From Arthrobacter globiformis (lineage in GTDB: Bacteria; Actinomycetota; Actinomycetes; Actinomycetales; Micrococcaceae): 32,000 bases of DNA. The first letter of the stretch is position 1, and every line of letters begins with the position of its first letter. Below are positions 7,802 through 31,685 of this stretch, piece after piece. The stretch is taken from assembly GCF_030817195.1 (NCBI RefSeq), contig NZ_JAUSYZ010000001.1, forward strand, positions 974,007 to 1,006,006, written 5' to 3'. The notes beneath the pieces are model-generated. The model was not told where the DNA came from, ran no database searches, and saw only the letters and a list, made by a program, of their open reading frames with translations. The translations under genes were made by a program, and so were the position numbers.

Positions 7802-8965
7802 TCAGTCCGACTCGAGCGGGAAGGCCACCGCTTCCCCCACCACGCGCAGGCACAGTTCCGTGCCTGGCTGCGCAATGGACGCATTCCAGTGGCGGATGGT
7901 GATCACCTCACCGCCGCCGGGATAGCGGTGGTCGGGCATGGCACCGGCCAGCTTGGGCGGCACCGCGAGCTTCAGCCGCACGGTGGTTTCGGGGCCGAAG
8001 TAGTCGGTATCCACCACCACGCCGCGGATCGGCCCGTCCTCGGCGATCCGGATCTGCTCCGGACGCAGCATGAGCTGGACGCGGCCCTGCGCGGGCGGGC
8101 GCCGGACGGGGATCCCACCCAGCGAGCAGGTGGCCAGCGAGCCCTCCATCCACGCATCGAGGATCACCGCATCGCCCAGGAACTCGGCCGTGGCACGGTC
8201 CGCCGGCCGGGTGTACACCACGAACGGGTTGCCGATCTGTGCCAGCTTGCCGCCCCGCATGACGGCCACCTGGTCCGCGAAGGAGAGCGCCTCGGCCTGA
8301 TCATGGGTGACGAGGATGGTGGTCACCCCGGCCTCGTTGAGGACCTTGGCCACCGCCCGCCGGGTGGCGACGCGCAGCCCGGCATCCAGGGCGGAGAACG
8401 GCTCATCCAGCAGCATCAGTTCGGGCTCGCGGGCCAGCGCCCGGGCCAGGGCGACACGCTGCTGCTGGCCGCCGGAAAGCTGGTGCGGCCGGCGCTTGGC
8501 CATGGCCGTGTCCAGCGACACCATCTCGAGGAGTTCGTTGACCCGGGCGTTGACCGCGCGCCGGCCGCCGTCGAGCTTTGCGGCACTGAGTCCGAACGCG
8601 ATGTTCTGTCCGACGGTCAGGTGCGGGAACAGGGCGCCGTCCTGGGCCACGTAGCCGACGTGGCGCTTGTGCGCCGGCTTCCACACACCGTCGCCTGCCA
8701 CCGGGGATCCGTTCAGCGAGATGCTGCCGGTGCCCGGGTGTTCAAAGCCGGCGATAAGCCGGAGCAGGGTGGTTTTTCCCGAACCCGAGGGGCCCACGAT
8801 CGCGGTGGTTCCGCCCTTGGCCACGGACAGGTTCACGCCCTTGAGGACGGCCTGCGAGCCGAAGTTCTTGGTGACGGCGTCGATCTCCAGGTGGCTGTTG
8901 GTGCTCGGCGCCACGGACGGTGAGATGCGTGGTTCCGGGAGCCTGGACGGGGATTGTTCGGTCAC
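7802..8965 (-). CDS. fbpC: Fe(III) ABC transporter ATP-binding protein with a C-terminal TOBE-like domain
   Basis: Walker A GPSGSGKT, signature LSGGQQQRVALARAL, Walker B LLLDEPFSALD. The GTG start overlaps the permease stop (GTGA). Confidence 0.8.
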   Translation of the reverse strand: MTEQSPSRLPEPRISPSVAPSTNSHLEIDAVTKNFGSQAVLKGVNLSVAKGGTTAIVGPSGSGKTTLLRLIAGFEHPGTGSISLNGSPVAGDGVWKPAHKRHVGYVAQDGALFPHLTVGQNIAFGLSAAKLDGGRRAVNARVNELLEMVSLDTAMAKRRPHQLSGGQQQRVALARALAREPELMLLDEPFSALDAGLRVATRRAVAKVLNEAGVTTILVTHDQAEALSFADQVAVMRGGKLAQIGNPFVVYTRPADRATAEFLGDAVILDAWMEGSLATCSLGGIPVRRPPAQGRVQLMLRPEQIRIAEDGPIRGVVVDTDYFGPETTVRLKLAVPPKLAGAMPDHRYPGGGEVITIRHWNASIAQPGTELCLRVVGEAVAFPLESD

Positions 8966-10554
8966 TGTCCCGCTACTTTCTTGGACTGCTGGAAGAGCAA
9001 ATAGGTCATGGGCGCCGAGATCACGATCATGAGCAGCGCGTACGGCGCCGCGCCCGCGTAGTCGATTTCGCTGCTCTTGCTCCAGAACTCGGTGGCGAGG
9101 GTCCTGGTTCCGTTGGGGGAGAGCAGCAGAGTGGCGGTCAGCTCGTTGGCGATGGCGAGGAAGACCAACGCCGCACCGCCGGCCGCCGCGGGGGCGGTGA
9201 GCCGGAGCGTCACGCGGATGAAGGACAGCAGGGGAGGCGTGCCCAGGGCCTGGGCGGCCTCATCCAGTTCCTTGGGGGCCTGGGCCAGGCCGGCGCGGAT
9301 ATTCACCAGCGCGCGCGGCAGGAACAGGAGGACGTAGGCGGCGATCAGGACGCCCGCCGTCTGGTAGACGCCAGGGACCAGCCGGATGCTGACGGTGACG
9401 AAGGCCAAGGCCACCACGATGCCCGGCATGGAGCTGGTGACGTAATTGGAGAGTTCAAGTGCCTTGCTGAACCAGCTGGCGTGGCGAACGGCGAGGTACG
9501 CCATGGGGAAGGCGACAACGGTCGTGGCCGCCGCGCCGGCCAGCCCGTACAGCAGGGTCTGCCAGAGGGCCGGAACGAACTCGTCGGCGGCCCAGATTTC
9601 CGCCCCGCCGGCAAGGATCCAGCGCAGCACGAACAGCAGCGGGAGCCCGAAGGCAAGCAGGGTCAGCGCGAGCAGAGCCAGCTGGGCCGGCGCCTGGTAG
9701 CTGTGCAGGGGCAGGCGCAGGGCCTTTGCCTGTGCGCCGGATCCAACGCGGGCGTACCGGGCGGTGCCGCGGCTGCGCACCTCAACGAGGAGCAGGACCA
9801 GGCAGAAGAACACCAGCACGCTGGCCAGCATGGTGCCCGCCGCGCCGTTGAACGTGGACTGGTACTGCACCATGATGGCGGTGGTGAACGTGTCGAAGCG
9901 GATCATCGCGAAGGCGCCGTACTCGGCCAGCAGGTGCAGCGCCACCAGCAGTCCGCCGCCCGTCATCGCAATCCGGAGCTGCGGCAGGACCACCCGGAAA
10001 AACGCCCGCCAGGCTCCCAGTCCAAGGGACGCAGCCGACTGCTCCACGGCAGGATCCAGCCGGCTGAGCGTCGCGGCAGCGGGAATGTAGACCAACGGGA
10101 AGTAGGAGAGCGTGGCGATGAGCACGCCCGAAAACAGGCCGTGCAGGGACGGCACGGCGGAAACCCACGCATAGCTGTTGACGAACGCGGGGATGGCCAG
10201 CGGCGCCGCGAGCAGCACCGCCCACACCTTCTGCCCGCGCAGCGTGGTCCGTTCCACGAGCCACGCCCCGCCCACACCCAGGATGAGGCACAGCGGCACC
10301 GTGAGCACTATCAGGAGCACGGTGTTGAGCAGCAGTTCGCCAACGCGCGGCCGCACGATCAGTTCAAGGGCGGTGTCCCAGCCCGTGGCCGCGGTCATGA
10401 CCGCGACGTAGCCGAGCGGGACGAGGGCGAACAGGGCGATCAGCATCGCCATGACGGCTACCGCGGAAACGCCGAAAGGCGGGCGGGGGCGCTTGCCCCG
10501 GCCCGCCGTCGTCGTGCTTCCGGATGTCTCCGGCGCCGATACTTGCGTGGTCAC
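8962..10554 (-). CDS. fbpB: Fe(III) ABC transporter permease with duplicated transmembrane halves
   Basis: 530 aa, polytopic. Two EAA-type loops are present (EQSAASLGLGAWRAFFRVVLPQL and DEAAQALGTPPLLSFIRVTLRL). It lies between fbpA-like and fbpC-like genes. Confidence 0.8.
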   Translation of the reverse strand: MTTQVSAPETSGSTTTAGRGKRPRPPFGVSAVAVMAMLIALFALVPLGYVAVMTAATGWDTALELIVRPRVGELLLNTVLLIVLTVPLCLILGVGGAWLVERTTLRGQKVWAVLLAAPLAIPAFVNSYAWVSAVPSLHGLFSGVLIATLSYFPLVYIPAAATLSRLDPAVEQSAASLGLGAWRAFFRVVLPQLRIAMTGGGLLVALHLLAEYGAFAMIRFDTFTTAIMVQYQSTFNGAAGTMLASVLVFFCLVLLLVEVRSRGTARYARVGSGAQAKALRLPLHSYQAPAQLALLALTLLAFGLPLLFVLRWILAGGAEIWAADEFVPALWQTLLYGLAGAAATTVVAFPMAYLAVRHASWFSKALELSNYVTSSMPGIVVALAFVTVSIRLVPGVYQTAGVLIAAYVLLFLPRALVNIRAGLAQAPKELDEAAQALGTPPLLSFIRVTLRLTAPAAAGGAALVFLAIANELTATLLLSPNGTRTLATEFWSKSSEIDYAGAAPYALLMIVISAPMTYLLFQQSKKVAGQ

Positions 10555-13195: not shown

Positions 13196-14014
13196 ATGGA
13201 AATCGAGGGTTCCGTCGCGCTCATCACGGGCGGTGCATCCGGCCTGGGCGCTGCCACGGCCCGGCGGCTGTTCGACGCCGGCGCTTCGGTGGTGCTAGCT
13301 GACCTCGGTTCCTCGGCCGGTGCCGCCTACGCCGACGAGCTGAACGCGGCCGGCCCGCAGAACCTTGCGGGCCATCAGGCGGCAGCCCCCAAAGCCGTTT
13401 TCATTCCGGCGGACGTGACCAGCGAGGAGCAGGTGCAGGCCGCCGTCGACGCAGCCGTCGGGCTGGGACCGCTGCGGATCGTGGTTAATTGCGCCGGCAT
13501 CGCCACGCCGGGCAAGGTCCTGGGGCGCGACGGCGTGCTGCCGCTGGAGACCTTCCAGCGCGTCATCCAGATCAACCTGGTGGGGACCTTCAACGTGGTC
13601 CGGCTGGCCGCCGCCGCGATGGCCGCCACCGAGCCCGCTGCTACCGAGCTCGGCGGGGAGGAGCGCGGAGTCATCATCAACACCGCCTCGGTGGCCGCGT
13701 TCGACGGACAGATCGGCCAGCCTGCCTACGCCGCGTCCAAGGGCGGCGTGGCCGCCATGACCCTGCCGCTGGCCCGCGAACTGGCCCGGTCCCTCATCCG
13801 TGTGGTGACGATCGCGCCCGGGATTTTCGAGACCCCGATGATGGCCGGACTGCCCCAGGATGCCCAGGAGTCACTGGGCCGGCAGGTGCCGCACCCGTCC
13901 CGCCTTGGCCGGCCCGCGGAGTACGCCAACCTCGCCGCGCACATCGTGGAGAACGCCATGCTCAACGGCGAAACCATCCGCCTCGACGGCGCCATCCGGA
14001 TGGGCCCGAAGTGA
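13196..14014 (+). CDS. Short-chain dehydrogenase/reductase, 3-hydroxyacyl-CoA dehydrogenase type-2-like
   Basis: AAGGAGGA lies upstream of the ATG. Cofactor motif TGGASGLG and catalytic Y-x3-K (YAASKGG) are present. The stop overlaps the next gene's GTG. Confidence 0.8.
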
Positions 14015-16167: not shown

Positions 16168-16335
16168 GTGTCCTCCATACCGCGACCGGCTGTTCGGGTT
16201 CAAGGGCGCGACAACATCTGAGACATATTCCCGGCTCCGGCCTGCTGCGGGTAACATCCCATAGGAACAGTAACCCGGCTCACAGTATCCAGCGCAGTGT
16301 ACGAGCCAAAGTCGAACACTCGAAAGATAGTTTCC

Positions 16336-19146
16336 ATGGCTGACACTGCAATGAATTCAGAAACAGATCTCGCCGCCGAACTCCGCGCCGATGTGCGCCG
16401 CGTTTCCACCCTGCTGGGTGAATCGCTGGTCCGCCAGCACGGACCCGAACTCCTTGACCTCGTGGAGCAGGTGCGCCTGCTCACCAAGGAATCCAAGGAA
16501 GCCGCCCGGGGCGGCGCGCACGCCACAGGTCCGTGGAGCGCGCACGACGTCGTTGCCCAGGTCCGCGAGCTGCTCGCCTCCCTGCCGCTCGAGCAGGCGA
16601 CCGACCTGGTCCGCGCCTTCGCCTTCTACTTCCACCTCGCCAACGCCGCCGAGCAGGTCCACCGGGTCCGCCGGTTGCGCACCCGGCAGGAGAAGGACGG
16701 CTGGCTGGCCAAGGCCGTCGAGGACATCGCGGGGCAGGCCGGCCCGGCGGTGCTGCAGGAAGTCGTCAACGAACTGGATGTGCGGCCGATCTTCACTGCG
16801 CACCCCACCGAAGCCTCCCGCCGTTCCGTGCTGGACAAGATCCGCAAGCTCTCGGACGTCCTGGCCCAGCCCACGGAGGAGGGCACCAGCGCCCGGCGCC
16901 GGCAGGACCGCCAGCTGTCGGAGATGATTGACCAGATGTGGCAGACGGACGAGCTGCGCCAGGTCCGGCCAACTCCCGTGGACGAGGCCCGCAACGCCAT
17001 CTACTACCTCAACAGCATCCTGACGGACGCGCTGCCGGAGATGCTCACGGATTTCTCGGAACTCCTCAACGAGCACGGTGTTGCGCTGCCGGCCCACAAC
17101 GCCCCGATTCGGTTTGGTTCCTGGATCGGCGGTGACCGCGACGGCAACCCGAACGTCACCGCGGCGGTGACCCATGAGATCCTGCAGCTCCAGAACCAGA
17201 ACGCCGTGCGGATCAGCATCGCCATGATCGACGAGCTCATCTCGATCCTGTCCAACTCCACGGCCCTCGCCGGCGCCGACCAGGCACTGCTCGATTCGAT
17301 CGACGCCGACCTCGCGAAGCTGCCCGGACTGGACCGCCGCATCCTGGAGCTCAACGCCCAGGAGCCCTACCGGCTGAAGCTGACCTGCATCAAGGCCAAG
17401 CTCATAAACACCGGCAAGCGGGTTGCGTCCGGAGCCAAGCACCAGCCCGGCCGCGACTACACCTCCACCGAGGAGCTCATCGGCGAACTCGAGCTGCTGG
17501 AACTGTCCCTGCGCAACCACTCGGCGTCCCTCGCCGCGGACGGCGCGCTGGCCCGTGTCCGCCGGGCCATCGCCTCCTTCGGCCTCCACCTCGCCACCCT
17601 CGACATCCGCGAGCACGCAGACCACCACCATGACGCCGTCGGGCAGCTCATGGACCGCCTCGGTGGTCCCGGCATTCGCTATGCCGAGCTGACCCGGGGC
17701 GAGCGCCTCGAGGTCCTCAGCGCGGAGCTCGCCTCCCGCCGTCCGCTGTCCGGCCACCCGATCAAGCTCGACGGCGCCGCTGACGGAACGTACGACGTCT
17801 TCCGGGAGATCCGCCGTGCCCTGCGCACGTACGGCCCGGACGTCATCGAGACCTACATCATCTCCATGACGCGCGGCGCCGACGACGTCCTGGCCGCCGC
17901 CGTGCTGGCGCGCGAGGCCGGCCTGGTCAGCCTCTTCGGCGATGCGCCGTACGCCAAGATCGGCTTCGCGCCGCTGCTGGAAACGGTTGAGGAGCTGCGG
18001 GCCTCGGCGGAAATCGTGGACGAGCTGCTGTCCGACCCGTCCTACCGCGAGCTGGTCCGGCTGCGCGGGGACGTCCAGGAAGTCATGCTCGGCTACTCGG
18101 ACTCCAACAAGGAATCCGGCGTGATGACCAGCCAGTGGGAAATCCACAAGACCCAGCGCAAGCTGCGCGACATCGCCGCCAAGCACGGCGTCCGGGTGCG
18201 CCTGTTCCACGGCCGCGGCGGTTCCGTGGGCCGGGGCGGCGGACCCACCTACGACGCCATCATGGCGCAGCCCAACGGCGTCCTCGAGGGCGAAATCAAG
18301 TTCACCGAACAGGGCGAGGTCATCTCGGACAAGTACTCCCTGCCGGAACTTGCCCGCGAAAACCTGGAGCTGTCCCTGGCCGCCGTGCTGCAGGGGTCTG
18401 CGCTGCACCGCACGCCGCGCACATCCGAGGACCAGCGCGAGCGTTTCGGGCACGTCATGGAGACGATCTCCGACGCCGCGTTTGCCCGTTACCGCAGCCT
18501 TATCGACCACCCGGACCTGCCCGCGTACTTCCTGGCCTCGACGCCGGTGGAGCAGCTCGGTTCGCTGAACATCGGCTCCCGCCCGTCCAAGCGCCCGGAT
18601 TCCGGTGCGGGGCTGGGCGGCCTGCGCGCCATCCCGTGGGTGTTCGGCTGGACCCAGTCGCGGCAGATCGTGCCGGGCTGGTTCGGCGTCGGCTCCGGGC
18701 TGAAGGCGGCGCGTGAAGCAGGCAACTCCGCCCAGCTTGTGGAGATGATGCACGGCTGGCACTTCTTCCGCTCCGTGCTTTCCAACGTGGAGATGACCCT
18801 GGCCAAGACGGACATGGAGATCGCGGGATACTACGTTGACACCCTGGTCCCGGCGGAACTGCACCACCTTTTCCGCGCCATCCGTGACGAGTACGAACTC
18901 ACCGTCGCCGAGATCCAGAACCTCACCGGCGAGAACGTGCTCCTGGATGCCCAGCCCACGCTCAAGCGGTCCCTGGAAATCCGCGACCAGTACCTCGACC
19001 CGATCAGCTACCTCCAGGTGGAACTGCTCCGCCGCGTGCGTGCAGAGGGTGCCAGCATTTCCGGCGGCGAGATCGACGAGCGCCTGCAGCGGGCCATGCT
19101 CATCACCGTCAACGGCGTAGCAGCAGGCCTCCGCAACACCGGATAG
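16336..19146 (+). CDS. ppc: Phosphoenolpyruvate carboxylase
   Basis: About 936 aa with classic PEPC blocks: [42 protein letters not shown], and the C-terminal [11 protein letters not shown]. Start is ambiguous (16297, 16336 or 16351). Confidence 0.93.
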
Positions 19147-19162: not shown

Positions 19163-19414
19163 ACGCGTCCTCACGTTTGGTCGCTTCATTCCAGACGCTT
19201 CCTCACTTTTGGTCGCCTCATCCCGAACGCTTCCTCACGTTTGGTCGCTTCATCCCAGACGCGTCCTCACGTTTGGTCGCTTCATCCCGAACGCGTCCTC
19301 ACTCTTTGAGGAAGCGTTTGGCGTGGGGCGACGGGATCTGAGGAAGCGTCCGGCGTGGGGAGGCAGGACCTGAGGAAGGGTTGGTGGAATCGGTGCGAAA
19401 CGTGAGGAAGCGTC
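19163..19414. repeat. Mirrored tandem-repeat array with a 32-bp period: 4.5 direct units followed by 3.5 inverted units
   Basis: Units start at 19163, 19195, 19227, 19259 and 19291 with the core ACGC[GT]TCCTCA. The inverted core TGAGGAAG[CG]GT occurs at 19307, 19339, 19371 and 19403. The symmetry centre is near 19304. The array fills the gap between the ppc stop and the ABC ATPase stop. Confidence 0.9.
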
Positions 19415-20171
19415 AACTGCCGTAGTGGACCACGATGGTCCGGCGGGGCGTGCTGCTGGGGAAGCCGTCGCCGTCGTCGGAGTAGGCCACGGTGCTCACG
19501 CGCACACCGTAGAGGGCTGACAGCTGGGCGTCGGTCAGGAGCTCCGCTGCCGCGCCGGTCCGCACCCCAGCGTGGCCCAGCAGGACCACGCGGTCGGCCA
19601 GGTGCAGGGCGTGGTCGGGATGGTGGGTGCTGAGGAGCAGGGCCATTCCGTCCGCCATCAGTTCACGCAGCAGCGTCAGGACGCGGGCCTGGTTCTTGAG
19701 GTCGAGGCCGGTGGCGGGCTCGTCCAGCACCAGGACGGGCGAGCCGGCGGCAATGGCCCGGGCGATCAGGATCAGCTGCTGCTCGCCGCCGCTGAGGGTG
19801 GGGAAACGCCGGTCCCGCAGCCCGGCCGCGCCCACCCGTTCCATCGCCTCCAGAGCTGCCTCATGGTCGGAGGGCCCGGGTGTCCGGAACACTCCAACGT
19901 GCCGGGCGCGCCCCATCAGGACCATGTCCAGCGCCCGGTAGGCAAAGGCGCTCCCATGCGCCTGCGGAACGTACCCGGCGCTCTCGCTGAGCCGGACCGT
20001 TCCCTCCTGCGGGTCCAGCAGTCCCGCGGCGCAGCGCACCAGCGTGGTCTTGCCGCTGCCGTTCGGGCCCAGCACGGCGGTGGCGGTTCCCGGCGGCACG
20101 CGGAAGCTGACGCCGCGGAACACCCAGTCCCGGGGCGAATAACAGAAGCCCACGCCGTCGAGTTCAAGCAC
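19413..20171 (-). CDS. ABC transporter ATP-binding protein, FecE/BtuD type
   Basis: Walker A GPNGSGKT, signature LSGGEQQLILIARAI, Walker B VLVLDEPATGLD. The GTG start overlaps the permease 3' end by 8 nt. Confidence 0.85.
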   Translation of the reverse strand: MLELDGVGFCYSPRDWVFRGVSFRVPPGTATAVLGPNGSGKTTLVRCAAGLLDPQEGTVRLSESAGYVPQAHGSAFAYRALDMVLMGRARHVGVFRTPGPSDHEAALEAMERVGAAGLRDRRFPTLSGGEQQLILIARAIAAGSPVLVLDEPATGLDLKNQARVLTLLRELMADGMALLLSTHHPDHALHLADRVVLLGHAGVRTGAAAELLTDAQLSALYGVRVSTVAYSDDGDGFPSSTPRRTIVVHYGS

Positions 20172-21300
20172 TGTCCCAGACCTTCTCGCGGTTCCGGCGC
20201 AGGAGCAGGAAAAACACGGGTGCGCCGATCAGGGCCGTCAGGACGCCGAGCGGGATCTCTCCGGCGGTTGCTGTGCGGGCGATGGTGTCCACCAGGACGA
20301 TGTAGGCGCCGCCCAGCAGGAACGACACGGGCAGGAGGACACGGTGGTCCGGGCCCACCCACATCCGGGCAAGGTGGGGGATCACCAGGCCAACCCAGCT
20401 GACGGCGCCGCTGACGGCCACAGCGCCGGCCACGATCAGCGCCACGGACACCAGCACCACCCACCGGAGCGGGCGCGCGCGCACACCCAGAGCCGCCGCG
20501 TCCTCGTCTCCGAGTGACAGCACGTTGATCCGCCAGCGCAGGGCAACGAGGACGGCGGCTCCACCGAGGACGGGGATGAGGGCCACCGCGACTTTGGTGA
20601 AGGTGGCCGTGGACACGCTGCCGAGCAGCCAGAAGACGATGGCGGGCAACGTGGTGTTGGGGTCCGCAATGTAAGTCACCAGGGCAACCAGGGCGGAGAA
20701 GAAGGACCCCGTGACCACGCCGCCGAGCACGATCATGAGCATCGGCGTCCCCGCCCGGCCCGAGGTGATCAGGAACAGGGTTCCGAGGGCCAGCAGCCCG
20801 CACGCAAAGGAGCCGCCCACCAGGAGGAACGGACCCAGGCCGAGCAGCAGCGCCACGGCACCGCCGAAGGATGCGCCGGCGGAGACACCGATGATCTCGG
20901 GGCTGACCAGGGGGTTGCGGAAAATGGCCTGCAGCGCTGCGCCGCCGATGGCCAGGCCGCCGCCCACCAGCAAAGCGAGCAGCACCCGGGGCAGCCGGAC
21001 CAGCAGCACCACATTTAATTCGGTGCCGCTGGCCTGAACCGGGATCGGCCCGATTTGTGCGGTCAGGATCTGGACCACGTGGTCCAGCGGCACGCTGTAG
21101 CGCCCCACCGCCAGTGCCAGCACCGTCACCGCGGCCAGGAAGCAGGCACTAAGGGCAACGGGAACGACGACGGCGGGTTCCCGCCGTCGTGCCGTCGCCT
21201 TTCGTTCCACCGCCCCGGCCGGGGCGGAAGCCGGACCCGCCCGGGGCAGTGCCGGCCGCACCCGCCTTCGCAACCGTGGAGCGCCGGCCTCATCAAGCAT
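20164..21300 (-). CDS. FecCD/BtuC-family ABC permease (metal-chelate type)
   Basis: Polytopic, 378 aa. It carries the family C-terminal signature GEIPLGVLTALIGAPVFFLLLRR. The Arg/Pro-rich N-terminal 50 aa may be an over-extension. Confidence 0.8.
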   Translation of the reverse strand: MLDEAGAPRLRRRVRPALPRAGPASAPAGAVERKATARRREPAVVVPVALSACFLAAVTVLALAVGRYSVPLDHVVQILTAQIGPIPVQASGTELNVVLLVRLPRVLLALLVGGGLAIGGAALQAIFRNPLVSPEIIGVSAGASFGGAVALLLGLGPFLLVGGSFACGLLALGTLFLITSGRAGTPMLMIVLGGVVTGSFFSALVALVTYIADPNTTLPAIVFWLLGSVSTATFTKVAVALIPVLGGAAVLVALRWRINVLSLGDEDAAALGVRARPLRWVVLVSVALIVAGAVAVSGAVSWVGLVIPHLARMWVGPDHRVLLPVSFLLGGAYIVLVDTIARTATAGEIPLGVLTALIGAPVFFLLLRRNREKVWDSA

Positions 21301-22426
21301 TGAACTGACGGTAGTTGGCGGACGGCCCGTTCTCCGCGGTCCGGAGAATCTTGTCTAGTTCAGCCTTCGTGAGCTCGTGGTTGTACAGGAACCTGAAGTA
21401 TTCGGACGCCTTGTCCCGCACCGCCGACCTCTGCTGCGGGAAGGCGATGTCGCCCAGCCAGTGCCACATCAGCGGCGACTCCTGCCCGGGCGGATCCCAG
21501 CGGTAGCCGCCCAGCGGGACCTTGTAGACACGCTTCGAGCGGACCGCGGACACGTTTTGCCACACCGGGTCCGAGTAGATGTCCTGCGGCATGGCGGCGT
21601 CGAAGTTGCCCAGCAGGATGACCTCAGGATCCCAGCGCAGCACCTGCTCAATGTCCACGCCCACCATGCCGGAGCCGGTCAGCGGATCCTTGCCTGTTGG
21701 AGGGTTCGAACCTCCCACCAGCTTGATGTAGAAGTCGTTGTAGCTGTTGGCGCCGGCAACCTTGAGCCCGCCGGTGAAGCGGTTGAAGTACAGGATGCTC
21801 GGACCCTGGGCCGCCCGCCCGGATGCCAGTGTCTTGACCTCGGCGAGCTCCCGGTCGCTGCGCGTCTTTAGCTCGGTGGCACGTTCCGGCTTGCCGAGCA
21901 TGGCGGCAAACATGGCCACCCAGGCGTCCACGTCCTCCTGTGTGCCGGAGTTTTTCAGCCCCAGAACCTGAAGCCCGGCCTTCTCGAGGGGCTCGATGAG
22001 CTGCGCGTCCGACCATTGGACCACCACGTCCGGGTTGAGGGCCCGGATACTCTCAACGTTGGCGGTGAAGTCCTGGGTGGCGATGTCGTGCGGGAGGTCC
22101 AGGGCGGCGGGAAACATGGCGCCCATGATGCCGTCGCGCATGGCCGCCCAGGAGGCGTTGTGCATGGCGGTGAGATGGTCGGCGCTGCGGTCGACGGCCA
22201 CCAGCAGGGACGCCGACGGCATCGGGATCGTCACCACCCGCGCCACCGGCCGGGCAAAGGACAGGGTCCTGCCGCGCTGGTCCGTGAGGCTGATGCTGTT
22301 GGTGCTGCCCGCAGGGGACGACGGCGGGGCGCTGCCGGATGCGCCGCATCCGGCCAGCACGGCGGCGGAGCCGCCTGCAATGAACACCTGTAGGGCGGCG
22401 CGGCGGTTTAGGTCTGCAGCTGTCAT
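21293..22426 (-). CDS. Metal-chelate-type substrate-binding lipoprotein (FecB/BtuF/CeuE class) with a Tat-like signal
   Basis: The N-terminus has NRRAALQVF followed by the lipobox LAGC. Class III binding-protein blocks are present (RVVTIPM, LNPDVVVQW, WDPEVILLGNF). Confidence 0.8.
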   Translation of the reverse strand: MTAADLNRRAALQVFIAGGSAAVLAGCGASGSAPPSSPAGSTNSISLTDQRGRTLSFARPVARVVTIPMPSASLLVAVDRSADHLTAMHNASWAAMRDGIMGAMFPAALDLPHDIATQDFTANVESIRALNPDVVVQWSDAQLIEPLEKAGLQVLGLKNSGTQEDVDAWVAMFAAMLGKPERATELKTRSDRELAEVKTLASGRAAQGPSILYFNRFTGGLKVAGANSYNDFYIKLVGGSNPPTGKDPLTGSGMVGVDIEQVLRWDPEVILLGNFDAAMPQDIYSDPVWQNVSAVRSKRVYKVPLGGYRWDPPGQESPLMWHWLGDIAFPQQRSAVRDKASEYFRFLYNHELTKAELDKILRTAENGPSANYRQFNA

Positions 22427-22575: not shown

Positions 22576-23349
22576 ATGGTTATCGATGGTGCCCAGTTGT
22601 TTGTCCGCTATGCCTATCCGCCCAATTCACGCGGGAGTTGCGGGCCGCCGGACAGTGACGCCCTGCTGCACTACGGGCAGTCCGGCGTCACGGACCAGGG
22701 ACTCCGTGAACTGGCCAAGGGCTTCGCCGGCGCCTGGCCCTACCTCGAACTGATCGCGGGATCGCACCGCATTGCCGATCCGCTGGACGCCCGCGTGGTG
22801 GAGGCCTACTGGGTGGGCAACAGCCTTCTGGATACCGTCGGCATCACCAACATCGGCAATTCCATGGAGGACCGCTTCCGGGCCCGCACCGGGCGGCAGT
22901 TCCCGCATCTGGTGGAAGGCGTGCTGGCCGGCGGGGTCCCGCACCACAGTTTCCACGTGTTTGAGATCTACCCGTGGCTGGGCCTGCTCCGCGACGAACG
23001 CCGGCACGCCACCGCGCTGAACGTGCTGGACAGGTGCCGGATCCGCTGGGGACAGGTGCTCGCGATCACCGGGGACGACGCCGTCGTGCGGTCCCGGCCG
23101 CTGGTCTGGGACGGCACAGCCCTCGACATCGGCGAACCCGCGGTGGAGTCGGCCAAGTTCGCGGTGAACGGAACCGGCTTCGTGGAAGGGCTGGCCGTGG
23201 GCGACGTCGTGTCACTGCACTGGGACTGGGTGTGTGACCGCCTCTCGGCGCACCAGCTCCAGCAGCTGAAGCACTTTACTGCCCGGCATCTCCGCATCGC
23301 CAACAGCGGCGTCGAGCACCGCGGCGCCGCCATAGCGCTCGAACATTAG
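22576..23349 (+). CDS. Conserved hypothetical protein; the C-terminal 75 aa or so may be HypC/HupF-like
   Basis: The track ORF 22429..23349 is trimmed to the ATG at 22576, which follows GAAGGTGG. The product is 257 aa with YAYPPNSRGSCGP near the N-terminus. See the findings for the C-terminal similarity. Confidence 0.6.
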   Translation: MVIDGAQLFVRYAYPPNSRGSCGPPDSDALLHYGQSGVTDQGLRELAKGFAGAWPYLELIAGSHRIADPLDARVVEAYWVGNSLLDTVGITNIGNSMEDRFRARTGRQFPHLVEGVLAGGVPHHSFHVFEIYPWLGLLRDERRHATALNVLDRCRIRWGQVLAITGDDAVVRSRPLVWDGTALDIGEPAVESAKFAVNGTGFVEGLAVGDVVSLHWDWVCDRLSAHQLQQLKHFTARHLRIANSGVEHRGAAIALEH

Positions 23350-23374
23350 CCCCGAGCACCAGCCCCGCGACTGC

Positions 23375-23725
23375 CTACGGTGACTGCGGCGCCGCGCCGT
23401 CGGGGTGTTCGGGGGTCTTGACGGCGGTGGCATCGCGGGCCGACGACTCGCCGGCCGGCCGGCCGGCAGGTGATTCATCGGTGCCCGTGTGCTCGCGTCC
23501 CGGTTCGGTGCCCTCCTCCTTGATGACGTCCTCGCCCCTGCGGGTGGTGCTGACGCCGACGCCGGCGGGAGCCGGGGCCGCGTCCTCCGGGGTTTCGTCT
23601 GCTCCGGGCTGGGCGGGTTCCTTCAGCGGCGGTTCACTGCCGAAGGCCCGCGCCGTGCCTGGTGCGGTGCCCTGCGTGGCGCCCTTTTCCGTGTCGTCGG
23701 GATCAGGCTGGTTTGTGGGTGACAT
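23375..23725 (-). CDS. Small acidic Pro/Gly/Glu/Thr-rich, probably disordered protein; last gene of the hydrogenase operon
   Basis: 116 aa. A strong SD (AAGGAGGG) lies 5 nt upstream of the ATG, embedded in the hypC 3' end with a 23-nt overlap. Third-position GC is high in this frame. Confidence 0.55.
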   Translation of the reverse strand: MSPTNQPDPDDTEKGATQGTAPGTARAFGSEPPLKEPAQPGADETPEDAAPAPAGVGVSTTRRGEDVIKEEGTEPGREHTGTDESPAGRPAGESSARDATAVKTPEHPDGAAPQSP

Positions 23726-24008
23726 GCTGCCCTCCTTGTGGTGGTTGTGCAGGTTGGGATCCGGGTCCGCTGTCCGCCGGGCGGCCCATCAGTTCCAGTC
23801 CATCCATGGCCTGTGCTGCGCCCGCGGCGTCCACGCGTTCCAGCGCGAAGCCCATGTGGATAAGGACCCATGTCCCGGGTTCGAGAGGGCCCTCATCCAG
23901 CAGCCCGATGTTAATCTTCCGCTGCACTCCGGCCACGTCGACGAGCGCGAGCTGGCCGCCGTAGCCCTCGAGGAGTTCGACGACCCTGCCGGGTATTCCG
24001 AGGCACAT
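23703..24008 (-). CDS. hypC: Hydrogenase assembly chaperone HypC/HybG/HupF family, with a C-terminal extension of about 25 aa
   Basis: The N-terminus is MCLGIPGRVV and the family motif GTWVLIHMGFAL is present. AAGGCGG lies upstream of the ATG. Confidence 0.9.
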   Translation of the reverse strand: MCLGIPGRVVELLEGYGGQLALVDVAGVQRKINIGLLDEGPLEPGTWVLIHMGFALERVDAAGAAQAMDGLELMGRPADSGPGSQPAQPPQGGQHVTHKPA

Positions 24009-24022
24009 GTACGGACACCGCC

Positions 24023-24604
24023 TTAGCTTGCAGTGGAGGAGCTTGGAGTGGAGGTCTGCTGGCCGAGCAGGGACCCGACGGCGGCGGCCGCCTCGGGCAC
24101 CGCCGCGGCCACCGCCGGCGAGAGACCGATGCCCTCGGACAGGTCGGCGGGGACACAGCCCACCACATACGTGGCAGGCAGGCTGCCGCCCATGGACCGA
24201 AGCCTGCCCAGCACGGCCGCCGGGTCCATGCCGTGGGGATCGAGCACGGCCCTGCCGTCCAGGTCCGCCGCGCTGACCTGCAGCACGCGGATGCTGCCGG
24301 GGGCCGAGTTCGCGTCCGGGGGCACCGTGTCCACGAGGACCAGGATGTCGACGCCGGCGAGCAGGTCGTAGGCCAGATGCATGCCGCGGATGCCGTAGTC
24401 CACCACTCGGACGCCGGGGTCCAGCGGCTGCGGGTGGGCGGCGAGGTGCCGCGCCACCTCGGGACCGAAGCCGTCGTCGTGCAGGAACATGTTCCCGACG
24501 CCGGCCACGAGGACGCCGCCGGTGCGCTCGCCGGACTCATGCGCGCCGGAACCCTGCGCGGCAAACTTCTGCGGGGCGCTCCCGGCCCTGCTGGCGGCGG
24601 TCAC
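24023..24604 (-). CDS. [NiFe]-hydrogenase maturation endopeptidase (HyaD/HybD/HoxM family)
   Basis: Diagnostic blocks: VAGVGNMFLHDDGFG, LVLVDTV and DPHGM. The track ORF runs to 24793. I place the start at the GTG at 24604 because it overlaps (GTGA) the stop of the micro-ORF and avoids overlapping the upstream gene. The start remains uncertain. Confidence 0.8.
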   Translation of the reverse strand: MTAASRAGSAPQKFAAQGSGAHESGERTGGVLVAGVGNMFLHDDGFGPEVARHLAAHPQPLDPGVRVVDYGIRGMHLAYDLLAGVDILVLVDTVPPDANSAPGSIRVLQVSAADLDGRAVLDPHGMDPAAVLGRLRSMGGSLPATYVVGCVPADLSEGIGLSPAVAAAVPEAAAAVGSLLGQQTSTPSSSTAS

Positions 24605-24720
24605 ATCCGCCGCACTTTCATGTACCGCCGGATATCCGGAACTGCGCGGATCCCGGCGTAGATGCCCCAGAGGGCCATCGCCGCCAGCACCGAAACAGTG
24701 GCCATTCCTATTGCCTTCAT
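24601..24720 (-). CDS. 39-aa single-pass membrane micro-protein, not in the supplied ORF track
   Basis: Hand translation gives MKAIGMATVSVLAAMALWGIYAGIRAVPDIRRYMKVRRM. The ATG overlaps the TGA of the 466-aa gene (ATGA) and the TGA overlaps the protease GTG (GTGA). A purine-rich GGAGGGAAAGGAAAA lies upstream. Confidence 0.65.
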   Translation of the reverse strand: MKAIGMATVSVLAAMALWGIYAGIRAVPDIRRYMKVRRM

Positions 24721-26117
24721 TGCGGGTTTTCCTTTCCCTCCAGCGGTTCGAGCTCGTCGGGCGCGTAGTAGAAGGACCGGCCGTAGCCCTCATGGAGATC
24801 GGCCGCCGGATCCTGCTCCAGGACGAGCCCGACGTGGGTGCCGCCGTCGACGTCGAAATGTACGCTGGTGACCCGCCCGGTCTGTCCGCCGAAGAACAGG
24901 TCCTGGGCGTCGGCGCGCCGTTTCGGGTGCACCCTCACCCGGCTGCCGCGCGCCACTGCCACACCATTGATCACGACGGCGTCCTCGTCCGGCCGGACAC
25001 CGGCCTCCGCCTCAGGATTCCACCAGGGAACGTCCTGACCGGCTGTGCTCCATGCTTCGGCGGGATCCGCGGCGAACGCGTGCGGGTTCCGCAGAGCGCC
25101 GTGCAGCTGCTGGAGGTCCTCCGGCGACATCGCCTCGCAACGGTCGATGACGGCGGCGGCGCGCGGGTCCGTGGCCCGCGCCTCGGCCTTTTCCTCATCG
25201 GTCAGCGTGAGCACCCGCAGTGTCAGGATCTCGTCGATCTCGGTGGAGTCGTACAGCGCCACCGAACTTTCCGGGGCGACGGCGGGATGGTCGTACAGGA
25301 TGATGGGCGAGATCAGCAGCACGTCGGTCTGGCCTTCCGGACCCGCCAGCACGGGCCAGCAGCGGTGCTGGGAACACCGCCCGGCTGCGGGCTGTGCCCA
25401 CTCCGGCGGGTCCAGCAGCGAGACGAAGTCGCCGTCCCGCACGCCGAGCAACACGTGTGCGCCAATGAAGGAGACCGCGGTGGCGTCCTGCCGGTTCCCG
25501 GCAGGCAGCGGACGCGCCGGCAGCGGACGGGCAGGCAGGAAATCGGCCGTGTTGGCCGCGGTGACGCTGAGCCGCAGCAGCCCGCCGGAGTCTTCGGCGG
25601 CGCTGAGCCGCAGTTCGCCGCGGAGAGCCCGACGGCGGCGCACCAGTCTGCCGGCCGGCCTCCCGGCGTCGTTCTTCAGTTCCTCCACGTCGAGTCCCTC
25701 CGGGACCTCCACCGGCAGGACCAGTCCGGTCCGGAGCTGGGCCACGGAGAAGGGCCCGAACGCCGCTTCCTGTTCGACGGCCTCGTCCCAGCTCAGCCAG
25801 TTCGCACCGCCGACGGCGAGGCTGTCCACGGGAGTGAACCCGCCGCCGTCGTCCGCTTTTTCTGCCGTGCGCGCCTGCAGCTGCAGAAAGCGGAAGTGGA
25901 TTTCGAGCCCGGCCTGGGCTCCCGGGGCAAGCAGGCAGTCGGCGGACATGGACGGCTCCTCCCCGCTGCCGTCCGCGGCGGCCCCCTGCGGACCCAGGAT
26001 CCCGAACTGCCACCGGGCCTGGTTCTTCTGGGCCGAGGCGCGGTAGGGGTAGAGCAGGTAGCCCTCGTAGAGGACGGCGTCGGCGACGGCGCGGGCAAGG
26101 GCCAGGCTGGTGTTCAT
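24717..26117 (-). CDS. Conserved hypothetical protein of the hydrogenase operon, 466 aa
   Basis: The track ORF 24717..26249 is trimmed to the ATG at 26117, which overlaps the upstream stop (ATGA). The N-terminus reads MNTSLALARAVADAVLYEGYLLYPYR. I recognise no motif. Confidence 0.7.
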   Translation of the reverse strand: MNTSLALARAVADAVLYEGYLLYPYRASAQKNQARWQFGILGPQGAAADGSGEEPSMSADCLLAPGAQAGLEIHFRFLQLQARTAEKADDGGGFTPVDSLAVGGANWLSWDEAVEQEAAFGPFSVAQLRTGLVLPVEVPEGLDVEELKNDAGRPAGRLVRRRRALRGELRLSAAEDSGGLLRLSVTAANTADFLPARPLPARPLPAGNRQDATAVSFIGAHVLLGVRDGDFVSLLDPPEWAQPAAGRCSQHRCWPVLAGPEGQTDVLLISPIILYDHPAVAPESSVALYDSTEIDEILTLRVLTLTDEEKAEARATDPRAAAVIDRCEAMSPEDLQQLHGALRNPHAFAADPAEAWSTAGQDVPWWNPEAEAGVRPDEDAVVINGVAVARGSRVRVHPKRRADAQDLFFGGQTGRVTSVHFDVDGGTHVGLVLEQDPAADLHEGYGRSFYYAPDELEPLEGKENPQ

Positions 26118-26767
26118 GGCAGCTCCCCGGACACGTCGGCGGTGGCCTGGGCGAGCAGCTTCTCCACGGCGGCCTCCCAGGACGTGAGGCCCCGTGAGGA
26201 CTTGTACCGGGCGAGTGCTGCCAGGACGTCCCGGTCCAGGCGGATCCATCCGGTGTTGGGGAAGTACTGGTCCATCAGGCTGCGCCAGGCGGCGACGGGC
26301 AGCTGGTAGGACGCCTCAAGGTCCCAGGGCACCTGTTCCACGGTGAACCCCGTCTGCCCCCTGGTGAACACCGTGCCGGAGAACAGCAGCTCCAGCGGTA
26401 TCTCGCCGTCGTGCAGGGCATGCAGGTATTTGGCGGCGGCAACGTCGAAATCAAACGTGCAGGGCAGCGGGAGGTCCACCTCGGTGCTGCCCGTGAAACC
26501 CTGCACCATGGTGCTGCACTGCATCCAGACGAACGACTTCAGGGTGGTGGGCCAGCGCCCGCGGTCGCCGAAGAGGTCCAGCAGGCCGGTCTCCTCCCCG
26601 GACGAGTAGCCGCGGCGCTGCGGCAGGATCCGGACCTGGCAGCGGAGCGCCACAGCGTGCACCACGGCACCCGTGCCCTCCGTCACCTGGAGCCTGGCGG
26701 TCAGCTGCGGGGCGGCGGCGTAAGGTTCGGGCCGGATCTCCAGCACGGCGAAGGAAAGTTCGGTCAC
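26114..26767 (-). CDS. Conserved hypothetical protein of the hydrogenase operon, 217 aa
   Basis: The GTG start overlaps the upstream stop (GTGA) and the stop overlaps the next ATG. I recall such genes annotated as a DUF (possibly DUF6084) in Hhy loci, but this is unverified. Confidence 0.7.
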   Translation of the reverse strand: MTELSFAVLEIRPEPYAAAPQLTARLQVTEGTGAVVHAVALRCQVRILPQRRGYSSGEETGLLDLFGDRGRWPTTLKSFVWMQCSTMVQGFTGSTEVDLPLPCTFDFDVAAAKYLHALHDGEIPLELLFSGTVFTRGQTGFTVEQVPWDLEASYQLPVAAWRSLMDQYFPNTGWIRLDRDVLAALARYKSSRGLTSWEAAVEKLLAQATADVSGELP

Positions 26768-27550: not shown

Positions 27551-28801
27551 TCAGCTGTCCTGTCCCGCGGCTGCCTGCAACGCCGGTGCCATGGCGGCTG
27601 CCGGCGCAGATGCGGGCACCGAGGCCGCTGGCGCGGACAGCGCAGCTGGCGCAGACACCGGGGCCAGCCCGGACAACGGGGCCGGTTCCGCCGCAGGCAC
27701 TGCGGCATGGGCCGGTGCTGCAGCCGGGGCTTCCGCCGGCTCTGCCGTTTCGTGGACCGCGGGGACCTCCAGGCCGGCCGGCGTCACCAGCGGGAGTGCC
27801 TGCACCGGCGTCACCTCGGCAGGGGCCACCGGTACCGGCGGAGCCGGCAACGGCGCGGACTGCACGGACACTGTCGGAACCGCCACGGACATGACTCCGT
27901 TCCGGACCAGCAGCGGCAGCGGCTCCAGGTGCAGGTCCTTGTCCTCAAGGCAGGCACCCGCACGCCTTACGTCAAAGTGCCCGCGGCAGGTGGGGCAGCG
28001 CAGCAGGCCCCCATCGGCAGGCGCCGCGAGGGCGCGCTGCAGTACGGCGCCGGCCATGGAGCCGGTGCAGCGCGGGCAATAGTCGCGGTAGGCGTAGATG
28101 TCCTGACCGGTGCGGCAGGCCAGCACCGGATAGCCGCCGACCAGGAAACCCGCCACCTCGCCGGCTTCGAGCCCGGCGACCTCCGGAAGCGGTTCCCACG
28201 TGCCGCCGGACATGTCGTGCCAGGATTCCGCCGGCGTTCCGCCCGCCGGATTGTTCACTCGGACCAGCAGTGAGTCCACCGGAATCAGCGCCGGTGAGCC
28301 TGGCTGCTTTTCCGCCTCGACGACGTCGATGGCCGTCACTTCCGGCGCGGCGTTCTGGATGGCTTCCTCAACGGCGTATTTGAGGGTGACGGACGACGAC
28401 GGGCACCCCTGGCAGGTGCCCAGCAGCTTGAGCCGGACCACGCCGTCGGGGCTGATGCCTTCCAGTTCCACGTCGCCGCCGTGCGATCCCAGGTAGGGCC
28501 GGACGCTGTCCAGCGCCGCCGCCACCCGTGCCTCCATCGAATGGGGGTGCAGCCCGTGGATCACCAGGAGGCCGGCCACCAGGCTGTCAGCGGTGAGCGC
28601 TTCCAGAGTGGCGTCGTCGAGCTTTCCCTGGGCCTGCAGGATCTCCATGATCCGCTGCAGTCCGGCGCCGTAGAGGTCTGTCACCTGCCGGACCAGGTCC
28701 TCGGCACGGCCGCGGGCCACCGCCCCGCCGGCGCCGAGGGCGTCAAGGAGTGTGCCGATTTGGTCGCCGTTCTGCAACGGCGGCCGGTCCCCGCCGAGCA
28801 T
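27551..28801 (-). CDS. NifU-domain iron-sulfur protein (HhyE-like) with a Rieske-like all-Cys domain and an Ala/Pro-rich tail
   Basis: 416 aa. A NifU C-terminal-type block is present (VRPYLGSHGGDVEL...LLGTCQGCPSS). A second domain carries CPRC ... CPTCRGHF. The last 110 aa or so are Ala/Pro low-complexity. The ATG lies 3 nt after the hhyL stop. Confidence 0.8.
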   Translation of the reverse strand: MLGGDRPPLQNGDQIGTLLDALGAGGAVARGRAEDLVRQVTDLYGAGLQRIMEILQAQGKLDDATLEALTADSLVAGLLVIHGLHPHSMEARVAAALDSVRPYLGSHGGDVELEGISPDGVVRLKLLGTCQGCPSSSVTLKYAVEEAIQNAAPEVTAIDVVEAEKQPGSPALIPVDSLLVRVNNPAGGTPAESWHDMSGGTWEPLPEVAGLEAGEVAGFLVGGYPVLACRTGQDIYAYRDYCPRCTGSMAGAVLQRALAAPADGGLLRCPTCRGHFDVRRAGACLEDKDLHLEPLPLLVRNGVMSVAVPTVSVQSAPLPAPPVPVAPAEVTPVQALPLVTPAGLEVPAVHETAEPAEAPAAAPAHAAVPAAEPAPLSGLAPVSAPAALSAPAASVPASAPAAAMAPALQAAAGQDS

Positions 28802-30626: not shown

Positions 30627-31685
30627 TTACCAGGTGCGCCGGGCCCCGGTGAGGAGCTCGGTTCCGGGCCGGCGCCACTTGGGCTCCTGGTCCAGCGTGT
30701 GCGTCGTGATGCCTCTCAGGGCCCGGATGGCGGATCCGTAGGGGCGGATGGTGCTGGTGGAAAGCTTGCCGCCGGGAGGCTCATCCATGAAGGGCATGAA
30801 CTTGTCCGGGAAGCCCGGCATGGTGCAGCCGATGCAGATGCCGCCGACGTTGGGGCAGCCGCCGATGCCGTTCATCCAGCCGCGCTTGGGCACGTTGCAC
30901 TTCACCACGGGACCCCAGCAGCCGAGCTTGACGATGCACTTGGGGGAACCGTACTCGGTGGCGAAGTCACCCTGCTCGTAGTAGCCGGCCCGGTCGCAGC
31001 CCTCGTGCACCGTCTTGCCGAACAGCCACGTCGGGCGCAGGTTTTCGTCCAGCGGAATCATCGGGGCCTGCCCCGTGGCCTGGTACAGCAGGTAGGTCAT
31101 GGTTTCGGAGAGGTTGTCGGGCTGGATCGGGCATCCGGGCACGCAGACAATGGGAATGCCGGCCTTGGACTTCCAGTCGTAGCCGAGGTAGTCCGGCACG
31201 CCCATGGCCCCGGTCGGGTTGCCTGCCATGGCATGGATGCCGCCGTAGGTGGCGCAGGTTCCCGCGGCGATGATGGCGGTGGCCTTGGGCGCCAGACGGT
31301 CCAGCCACTCGCTGGTGGTTATGGGCTGGCCGGTCTCGACGTCGTTGCCGAACCCGCACCAGTAGCCGCCGGGCTCATGGAGTTTCTCGTTGGGGATGGA
31401 TCCCTCGACCACCAGCACGAACGGTTCCAGTTCGCCCCGGTCCGCCTTGCGGAACCATTCCAGGAAATCGTCGGCCCCTTCTTGGGGACCGCATTCAAAG
31501 TCGATCAGTGGCCAGTGCATGGCGATCTTCGGCAGGCCGGGCAGCGCGCCGAGGGCGATTTCCTCGACGCTCGGCTGGGTGGCCGCCGTCAGGGCGACCG
31601 AATCGCCGTCACAACTGAGCCCTGCGTTGATCCACAGCACGTGGATGAGGGCTTCTTCGGCCTTAAGGGAAGTTTCCGTAGGCAT
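30627..31685 (-). CDS. hhyS: [NiFe]-hydrogenase small subunit, group 1h, no Tat signal peptide
   Basis: 352 aa. It begins MPTETSLKAEEALIHVLWINAGLSCDGDS with no RRxFxK leader. Cys-rich Fe-S binding blocks follow (GTCATYGG, CVPGCP, CIVKLGCWGP, GGICIGC). GAAAGAGG lies upstream of the ATG. Confidence 0.9.
   Translation of the reverse strand: MPTETSLKAEEALIHVLWINAGLSCDGDSVALTAATQPSVEEIALGALPGLPKIAMHWPLIDFECGPQEGADDFLEWFRKADRGELEPFVLVVEGSIPNEKLHEPGGYWCGFGNDVETGQPITTSEWLDRLAPKATAIIAAGTCATYGGIHAMAGNPTGAMGVPDYLGYDWKSKAGIPIVCVPGCPIQPDNLSETMTYLLYQATGQAPMIPLDENLRPTWLFGKTVHEGCDRAGYYEQGDFATEYGSPKCIVKLGCWGPVVKCNVPKRGWMNGIGGCPNVGGICIGCTMPGFPDKFMPFMDEPPGGKLSTSTIRPYGSAIRALRGITTHTLDQEPKWRRPGTELLTGARRTW

Follow-up and report, generated by a model that had tools for sequence, protein, structure and literature searches.

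What holds Hhy, the group 1h [NiFe]-hydrogenase, at the membrane, and how is it connected to the quinone pool? Much of the biological uptake of atmospheric H2 is attributed to enzymes of group 1h. Both points have been described as unresolved since 2014, and according to published analyses the operon encodes no transmembrane protein. The window analysed here, a 32,000-nucleotide (nt) stretch of Arthrobacter globiformis DNA taken as a whole, carries an hhy operon on its minus strand, and the question takes a concrete form there: the apparent gap between the gene of a 466-amino-acid (aa) protein and that of the maturation protease is occupied by an open reading frame (ORF) of 39 codons with a short hydrophobic product. 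We examined whether this ORF is a gene, how widely it accompanies group 1h loci, and whether its product, a member of the DUF6893 family, could be the element that holds Hhy at the membrane.

An earlier, sequence-only reading of the window had stated that group 1h enzymes are reported as membrane-associated without a membrane subunit, which agrees with three reports (10.1101/769216, PMC6883350, PMC7174314). Hhy was recovered in the membrane fraction only, it resists 5% cholate "despite lacking obvious transmembrane regions", and its activity is obligately linked to the respiratory chain (bioRxiv 10.1101/769216). No cytochrome b equivalent was detected among the proteins encoded by the operon (PMC6883350), and the Methylacidiphilum Hyd-1h enzyme is membrane-associated "without membrane anchor" (PMC7174314).

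A conserved 39-codon gene in the hhy operon

The ORF and its parts are located in the window as follows.

24601-24720, minus strand: DUF6893 small protein gene, 39 codons plus TGA, product MKAIGMATVSVLAAMALWGIYAGIRAVPDIRRYMKVRRM (RefSeq WP_373460082.1)
24727-24741, minus strand: Shine-Dalgarno-like purine tract GGAGGGAAAGGAAAA, within the 3' end of the 466-aa gene, with an AAGGA core about 9 nt before the ATG
24646-24717, minus strand: predicted transmembrane helix, codons 2-25, with a small-residue face formed by G5, A/G19, G23 and S26
24604-24645, minus strand: basic tail, codons 26-39, S-x-P-D-x-x-R-Y-[LM]-K-x-R-x-M-COOH, a predicted cytoplasmic amphipathic helix

Translation of 24601-24720 on the minus strand gave MKAIGMATVSVLAAMALWGIYAGIRAVPDIRRYMKVRRM, exactly as first read, and the Pfam match of this product together with its conservation indicates that the apparent gap does hold a real gene. 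The peptide reached 34.9 bits against the Pfam family DUF6893 (PF21833; gathering cut-off 24.6, E = 1.5e-8, profile positions 3-32 of 32), and so it does carry a DUF label, as the sequence-only reading had suggested for similar tiny ORFs; no NCBIfam model matched the peptide. An exact-sequence look-up returned MDQ0863362.1 / WP_373460082.1, "DUF6893 family small protein [Arthrobacter globiformis]", annotated between the 193-aa protease MDQ0863361.1 and the 466-aa protein MDQ0863363.1. The ORF had been called hidden; this was not upheld, since the identical peptide and both of its neighbours are already annotated under consecutive accessions (MDQ0863361 to MDQ0863363). The peptide as an object is thus already known: it belongs to a catalogued family, and its exact sequence is annotated.

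As regards architecture, members of the family are about 32-40 aa long and consist of one hydrophobic helix and, at the extreme C-terminus, the motif [PKR]-D-x-x-R-Y-[LI]-[KR]-x-[RKT]-x-M, and the window peptide conforms to this. It aligned without gaps with 148 non-redundant 39-aa members, every invariant residue being present, and it shows no difference that would set it apart from the family, which includes Cupriavidus necator PHG071 and has no assigned function. A profile search over 5.8 billion proteins, led by a 40-aa family member, retrieved 2,748 DUF6893 clusters; among the best 120, nearly all are exactly 39 aa long and carry the name "DUF6893 family small protein". Single-sequence phmmer over 1.84 billion representatives yielded five true 39-aa matches plus low-complexity noise, and retrieval by genomic context was far richer. 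No paper in the literature searched mentions DUF6893, PHG071 or this peptide.

The junctions of the ORF were as first described: the 466-aa gene ends in a TGA that runs into the ATG of the peptide (caATGAag), a GTG in frame with the protease likewise runs into the TGA of the peptide (atGTGAcc), and the purine-rich tract ahead of it was confirmed at 24727-24741. The argument built on these junctions, that chance would seldom produce a pair of exact 4-nt couplings, proved weak. Four successive -4 junctions (DUF5947>DUF6084>466aa>DUF6893>protease) make such overlaps the norm in this operon, and the downstream one is clade-specific. The size of the ORF is equally uninformative by itself, because the window, at 68% GC, contains 267 ORFs of at least 39 aa.

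Stronger evidence came from comparison across loci. With the adjacent 466-aa protein as the query, we fetched 80 loci from named genomes (Arthrobacter, Cryobacterium, Mycobacterium, Mycolicibacterium, Nocardia, Rhodococcus, Streptomyces, Nocardioides, Frankiales, Micromonosporaceae and others); all locus sets together amount to about 170 loci. A hidden Markov model (HMM) of the peptide matched in 80/80 of these genome loci, on the same strand and directly 3' of the 466-aa gene, and 78 of them preserve an intact ORF of exactly 39 codons. The two non-intact copies are a frameshifted one from a long-read metagenome-assembled genome and one without a canonical start at codon 1. Residues G5, P28, D29, R32, Y33 and the C-terminal M39 are invariant across the set. 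The entropies of the first, second and third codon positions are 0.99, 0.68 and 1.44, the third position being the variable one, and the ratio of nonsynonymous to synonymous polymorphism (pN/pS) is 0.55 for the whole peptide (helix 0.70, tail 0.34), compared with 1.12 and 1.27 in the alternative frames. Frame-preserving, synonymous-biased conservation, which had been proposed as the check for this ORF, was therefore observed, with the frame intact in 78/80 and a pN/pS below 1 in the peptide frame only.

The signals around the ORF are also retained, to differing degrees. A Shine-Dalgarno-like core, sought at positions -18 to -5, was present in 79/79 orthologous loci, compared with 13.8/79 in control windows. 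The junction with the 466-aa gene is mostly an overlap, of -4 in 25 loci, -13 in 21 and -10 in 11. The stop codon of the peptide gene is TAG in 40 loci, TGA in 29 and TAA in 11; the terminal Met is kept whichever of these follows, which argues that it is selected at the protein level. Since the stop codon varies, the GTGA coupling to the protease gene is clade-specific, and the -4 GTG arrangement was found in only about 12 loci, mostly from Micrococcaceae. For this clade, the sequence-only reading was right to take the GTG at the peptide stop as the start of the protease: it is the sole candidate in three of the loci (L004, L005 and L021), it is used in the public 193-aa record WP_307099666.1, and an exact look-up of the alternative 161-aa product in public records found none. 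From this pattern of conservation, we conclude that the ORF is a real gene under strong protein-level selection, and in all likelihood its peptide is translated.

Apparent in-frame fusions of the 466-aa protein with the peptide were considered and rejected, as they arise from long stop-free alternate frames in high-GC DNA. The stop of the 466-aa gene lies in a different frame from the peptide at every locus, and the apparent fusion P0133 is a frameshift artefact.

Distribution of DUF6893 across hydrogenase clusters

Across taxa, the peptide gene was found in the group 1h context hhyS-hhyL-NifU-DUF5947-DUF6084-466aa-protease-hyp, and in Actinomycetota it adjoins the 466-aa or the protease gene. 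It lies within 120 nt before the protease gene in 64/79 loci; another ORF separates the two in 12/79, and in these the peptide gene is still joined to the 466-aa gene. In Streptomycetaceae plasmids, Methylocystis parvus and Cupriavidus necator pHG1, the 466-aa and protease genes abut. We considered a loss of the peptide in Cupriavidus and Kitasatospora, perhaps tied to a soluble enzyme, and rejected it, because the gene has been relocated to the other side of the protease gene: a version of 32-38 aa directly follows the protease gene in Burkholderiales, Methylocystis and Streptomycetaceae plasmids. The Cupriavidus version, MKGFLKYLVLPALVVALLANIKDIRRYIRIRSM, is located behind AGGAGG and annotated "hypothetical protein PHG071" (AAP85824.1); the Methylocystis version is MGLFEIILGLLILALIAFNFRDIVRYIKITMM. 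Seven of the 8 plasmid loci carry a DUF6893 copy, and in further Burkholderiales-type loci the peptide gene follows the protease gene in 6/6. A tblastn search of the plasmids with the peptide overlooked almost all of the relocated copies.

A reverse test was carried out on 80 metagenome loci picked by the peptide motif alone, derived from a narrower peptide alignment. Neighbours belonging to an hhy cluster were present in 78 of them. DUF6893 is thus a near-universal and nearly exclusive member of group 1h clusters. In the literature searched, this association appears to be unreported, as does the place of the peptide as their only membrane-grade element.

Two architectures can be distinguished. 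In the first (the window and loci L002-L081; most Actinomycetota), the peptide gene precedes the protease gene and the cluster encodes a long HhyE with NifU and Rieske parts, of about 300-416 aa. In the second (L082-L089 and L173-L178; Burkholderiales, Methylocystis and Streptomycetaceae plasmids), the peptide gene follows the protease gene and a short NifU-only protein of 176-210 aa is encoded.

Some individual loci depart from these arrangements. The two members of the peptide-driven metagenome sample (2/80) that have no hydrogenase cluster are L163, with DUF6893 at 1153-1266 beside ORFs resembling STAS and sensor-kinase proteins, and L171, with DUF6893 at 3439-3543 beside DinB-like ORFs. 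On a Mycobacterium intracellulare plasmid (NZ_CP012886.2; L001 9001-9192), a 63-aa paralogue combines the DUF6893 core with a 24-aa C-terminal extension, so that the Met is not terminal; it follows a phosphoribulokinase gene in a Calvin-cycle/hyp/NDH-1 region about 20 kb from the hhy operon of the plasmid, and that operon keeps a normal 39-aa copy (L084 8335-8454). The sole hhy-type plasmid locus without a clear DUF6893 copy is that of Streptantibioticus cattleyicolor pSCAT (L088). There, the 466-aa homologue (8348-9949) is followed by an apparent further hydrogenase small-subunit gene, and a weak ORF with a transmembrane segment and a basic tail (…IPGLIREIRIWRM…) is found 5 kb downstream, at 13205-13351. 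In a divergent metagenomic hhy cluster (L178 5998-7356), the DUF6893 gene is followed by genes for a DUF1440 membrane protein and a YceI-like protein. The YceI family binds polyisoprenoids and quinones, and this pair may be a hint of a quinone-handling module.

Membrane prediction and possible roles of the peptide

To grade hydrophobicity we used the mean Kyte-Doolittle value over 19 residues (KD19), with values above 1.6 taken as transmembrane-grade. The peptide reached a maximum of 1.75 and was the only product above 1.6 from hhyS to hypC; by this scale, the claim that no other transmembrane segment is predicted in the operon holds from hhyS to hypC. An AlphaFold2 (AF2) model built with 120 homologues consisted of a helix at residues 2-25, a break and a second helix at 27-38, with a predicted local distance difference test (pLDDT) score of 93. 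Together with the KD19 value and a mean tail net charge of +3.9, this helix-break-helix agrees with the description of the peptide as one hydrophobic helix plus a basic tail. The Hessa sum was below 0 (favourable insertion) in 64/79 orthologues. Because the N-terminal flank is neutral and the tail basic, the N-terminus is predicted to lie outside and the C-terminus inside. HhyS carries neither a twin-arginine translocation (Tat) signal nor a C-terminal anchor helix, so that the enzyme faces the cytoplasm, the side predicted for the conserved tail.

Conservation over residues 5-27, evaluated in the alignment of 148 non-redundant 39-aa peptides, peaked at a periodicity of 100 degrees, at 4.2 times the mean. 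G5, A/G19, G23 and S26 fall on one face of the helix and form a GxxxG-like packing surface; this conserved small-residue face suggests tight helix-helix packing. No alignment column contains a conserved His or Cys, and it follows that the peptide cannot carry a cofactor or be the quinone-reducing site. It also differs from the cytochrome b-type anchor and quinone-reducing subunits (HyaC/HoxZ) in having a single helix and no haem-ligating histidines, and no cytochrome b match was obtained in the operon with Pfam or NCBIfam.

The best-supported reading of these data, which we favour tentatively, is that DUF6893 is a bitopic tether or adaptor whose invariant cytoplasmic tail docks a protein of the Hhy cluster. 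The 39-residue protein is a near-universal, cluster-specific component of group 1h loci. Its gene is coupled in translation to the other accessory genes of the block, and synthesis presumably keeps pace with that of the neighbouring products. Going by hydrophobicity and the positive-inside rule, residues 2-25 would span the membrane once as a helix, leaving the short N-terminus outside, and the tail P-D-x-x-R-Y-L-K-x-R-x-Met-COOH would dock onto a cytoplasmic protein encoded in the Hhy system. In this way the Tat-less, cytoplasm-facing hydrogenase complex would be kept at the membrane, close to menaquinone. As partner, the simplest candidates are the 466-aa protein, which is co-translated and has an acidic C-terminus and an SH3-like domain, and the three Hhy proteins HhyS, HhyL and HhyE. 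The role of the peptide would be that of a tether or adaptor and not that of an electron-transfer site.

A more ambitious proposal, which we put forward with greater reserve, is that DUF6893 is the missing membrane subunit of group 1h: the G5/A19xxxG23/S26 face would pack or oligomerise and the Met-COOH tail would clamp an Hhy-cluster protein, possibly by the SH3-like C-terminal domain or the acidic C-terminus of the 466-aa protein, so that a membrane-docked complex would form in which electrons pass from atmospheric H2 to menaquinone. If true, this would account for a membrane attachment of Hhy that withstands cholate, and perhaps also for the difference in affinity between membrane-bound enzymes and the Cupriavidus enzyme purified in soluble form. 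In any case, a catalogued yet unstudied micro-protein family supplies the only membrane-grade element of these operons, which makes the long-standing question of attachment directly testable. A C-terminal tag would destroy the invariant terminal Met, and a hydrophobic peptide of 4 kDa would probably be missed by standard proteomics and purification.

Several observations weigh against a tether. The Hessa sum is +1.25 in the window peptide and +3.6 in that of Cupriavidus, whose segment contains K, P and N, so that insertion is marginal in both. The Cupriavidus enzyme, at whose locus the peptide is encoded, was purified soluble (PMC7174314). The peptide gene always borders maturation genes (protease, hypC, hypF), an arrangement just as compatible with a role in maturation, and rare DUF6893 members exist beyond hydrogenase clusters (L163, L171 and the 63-aa paralogue of L001). 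Finally, membrane association has been reported in Acidobacteriota, Chloroflexota and Verrucomicrobiota too, and the locus survey covered taxa outside these three.

Known systems offer partial likenesses to the proposed tether. In the periplasmic enzymes of groups 1b-1d (E. coli HyaA, HybO), the C-terminal anchor helix of the small subunit is likewise a single hydrophobic helix that could hold a [NiFe]-hydrogenase at the membrane close to the quinones. The DUF6893 helix, however, is a separate 39-aa product and not part of HhyS, Hhy faces the cytoplasm and has no Tat signal, and where groups 1b-1d have a cytochrome b, here there is neither cytochrome b nor haem ligands, which leaves the electron route to the quinone unexplained by the peptide. 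A precedent is offered by the related groups 1l and 1m, whose clusters also encode small single-transmembrane proteins, HylTM1-5 in 1l and two proteins of 82-92 aa in 1m (PMC9561532). Compared on the basis of their description in that paper, these share with DUF6893 a short predicted transmembrane segment, a place in high-affinity group 1 clusters without cytochrome b and the lack of an assigned function, but they differ in size, number and cluster position. CydX of cytochrome bd and PetG, PetL, PetM and PetN of cytochrome b6f are, like DUF6893, single-transmembrane proteins of 30-40 aa, co-encoded with a redox enzyme and long overlooked; they pack on large co-encoded integral-membrane subunits, whereas none is encoded with DUF6893, in which the cytoplasmic tail is the best conserved part. 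HucM, the membrane-associated scaffold of the group 2a enzyme Huc (PMC10017518), is a non-catalytic protein proposed to link a hydrogenase that oxidises atmospheric H2 to membrane menaquinone. It is larger than DUF6893 and forms a stalk and a hydrophobic chamber, and Huc is released from membranes more easily than Hhy (10.1101/769216); no homology is implied.

The main rival explanation, which we consider unlikely but still serious, is that the peptide is a maturation or assembly factor that works with the protease, HypC and HypF, possibly also with DUF5947, DUF6084 and the 466-aa protein, and stays outside the mature enzyme; it might, for example, place large-subunit processing or metal delivery at the membrane, or hold the pre-enzyme there until assembly. 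Gene order agrees with this, as the protease gene is always adjacent: the peptide gene stands before it in most Actinomycetota (64/79 within 120 nt) and directly between it and hypF in Burkholderiales, Methylocystis and Streptomycetaceae plasmids. The 12/79 loci in which an ORF intervenes before the protease gene speak against it, since the junction that is kept there is the one with the 466-aa gene. Next to some clusters lies a gene for a nickel permease (on pHG1) or an ABC importer (at 19413-22426 in the window), and the purified two-subunit Cupriavidus enzyme, which does not contain the peptide, is soluble (PMC7174314). On the other side, hydrogenases of other groups mature through the same Hyp machinery without such a peptide. 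To our knowledge, canonical [NiFe] maturation includes no membrane step.

A modulator of another membrane complex, in the manner of CydX, AcrZ or MgtS, seems improbable. The target could be a nickel importer, a terminal oxidase or a quinone-handling protein, and the peptide would be connected with the hydrogenase by co-regulation with hhy alone. The small-xxx-small face implies a transmembrane-helix partner, and none is encoded from hhyS to hypC; in L178 the peptide gene is followed by the DUF1440 and YceI-like pair, and the obligate linkage of Hhy activity to the respiratory chain (10.1101/769216) would also fit. Nevertheless, no membrane partner gene is conserved across the ~170 loci, and the small-residue face is equally suited to homo-oligomerisation. 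Moreover, it is in the cytoplasmic tail and not in the helix that the peptide is invariant (pN/pS 0.34 vs 0.70), which points to a soluble or peripheral partner.

By analogy with Huc, which uses an internal hydrophobic chamber and not transmembrane helices (PMC10657181), the peptide might instead be a hydrophobic subunit buried in a soluble Hhy assembly, lining a quinone chamber for instance. This is the least likely of the functional explanations. In several lineages the hydrophobic stretch is short, with many Ala and Gly residues, and in Streptomyces L086 and Cupriavidus it has 15-18 apolar residues and a positive Hessa sum; these features are opposed by the insertion-competent segment of 64/79 orthologues, by a charge asymmetry that follows the positive-inside rule, and by the resistance of Hhy, unlike Huc, to cholate extraction (10.1101/769216). 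That the ORF is there by chance, or serves purely as a translational-coupling spacer whose peptide is irrelevant, would suit the abundance of ORFs of this size and the routine -4 overlaps, but it is refuted by the invariant residues across phyla, the fixed length, the pN/pS below 1 in this frame only, the family HMM match and the retention of the peptide after its relocation to the other side of the protease gene, and its probability is practically nil.

Neighbouring genes of the operon

The genes around the DUF6893 gene are given below.

30627-31685, minus strand: HhyS, hydrogenase small subunit, no twin-arginine signal, no C-terminal anchor helix
28805-30598, minus strand: HhyL, [NiFe] large subunit, by family matches
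27551-28801, minus strand: HhyE-like NifU plus Rieske-like iron-sulfur protein, by Pfam (compare PMC6883350)
26764-27708, minus strand: DUF5947 protein, Pfam match beginning at ORF residue 96
26114-26767, minus strand: DUF6084 protein, with -4 overlaps at both ends
24717-26117, minus strand: 466-aa conserved hhy-cluster protein (WP_307099667.1), whose TGA overlaps the peptide ATG
24023-24604, minus strand: [NiFe]-hydrogenase maturation protease (HycI/HupD family), 193 aa (WP_307099666.1), whose GTG start overlaps the peptide stop
23703-24008, minus strand: HypC/HupF chaperone, by Pfam

Since the Pfam match of the DUF5947 protein begins at residue 96, its true start is probably further downstream. 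The 466-aa protein belongs to no Pfam family despite having more than 8,000 homologues. Its model, with a pLDDT of 68.5, combines a confident beta-sandwich core with an SH3-like barrel, about 70 residues long, at the C-terminus. The barrel resembles, in fold only, PetP, a peripheral cytoplasmic subunit of cytochrome b6f (prob 1.0, TM-score 0.62-0.76); sequence methods gave no support for this likeness, which is a fold-level lead only. The top Foldseek match (DrmAB, TM-score 0.22) was dismissed as meaningless. The C-terminus of the protein is acidic, PDE[LIV]EPL (…APDELEPLEG in the window), and this feature is retained in the Cupriavidus, Kitasatospora and M. intracellulare homologues. It might, we infer, be one candidate partner of the basic tail of DUF6893.

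Downstream of hypC and on the same strand, an ABC importer (Peripla_BP_2 binding protein, FecCD permease and ABC ATPase) occupies 19413-22426 (minus strand), with some 1.3 kb of small, unassigned ORFs between it and hypC; the importer may provide the hydrogenase with metal. In this interval, at 22968-23725 (minus strand), three mutually overlapping ORFs of 116, 88 and 121 aa had no Pfam match, and the two that were checked against NCBIfam had none there either. Overlapping antiparallel ORFs of 949 and 836 aa are located at 16297-19146 (plus strand) and 16357-18867 (minus strand), the minus-strand one without a Pfam match. In RefSeq and PLSDB, the gene at the hhyS position, immediately upstream of that for the large subunit (about 352-362 aa), bears the label "hydrogenase expression protein HypE", a systematic misannotation (cf. 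PMC13332983) that was observed in L082 (2187-3242), L083 (2260-3339), L084 (1933-2988), L085 (2228-3289) and L087 (2107-3195).

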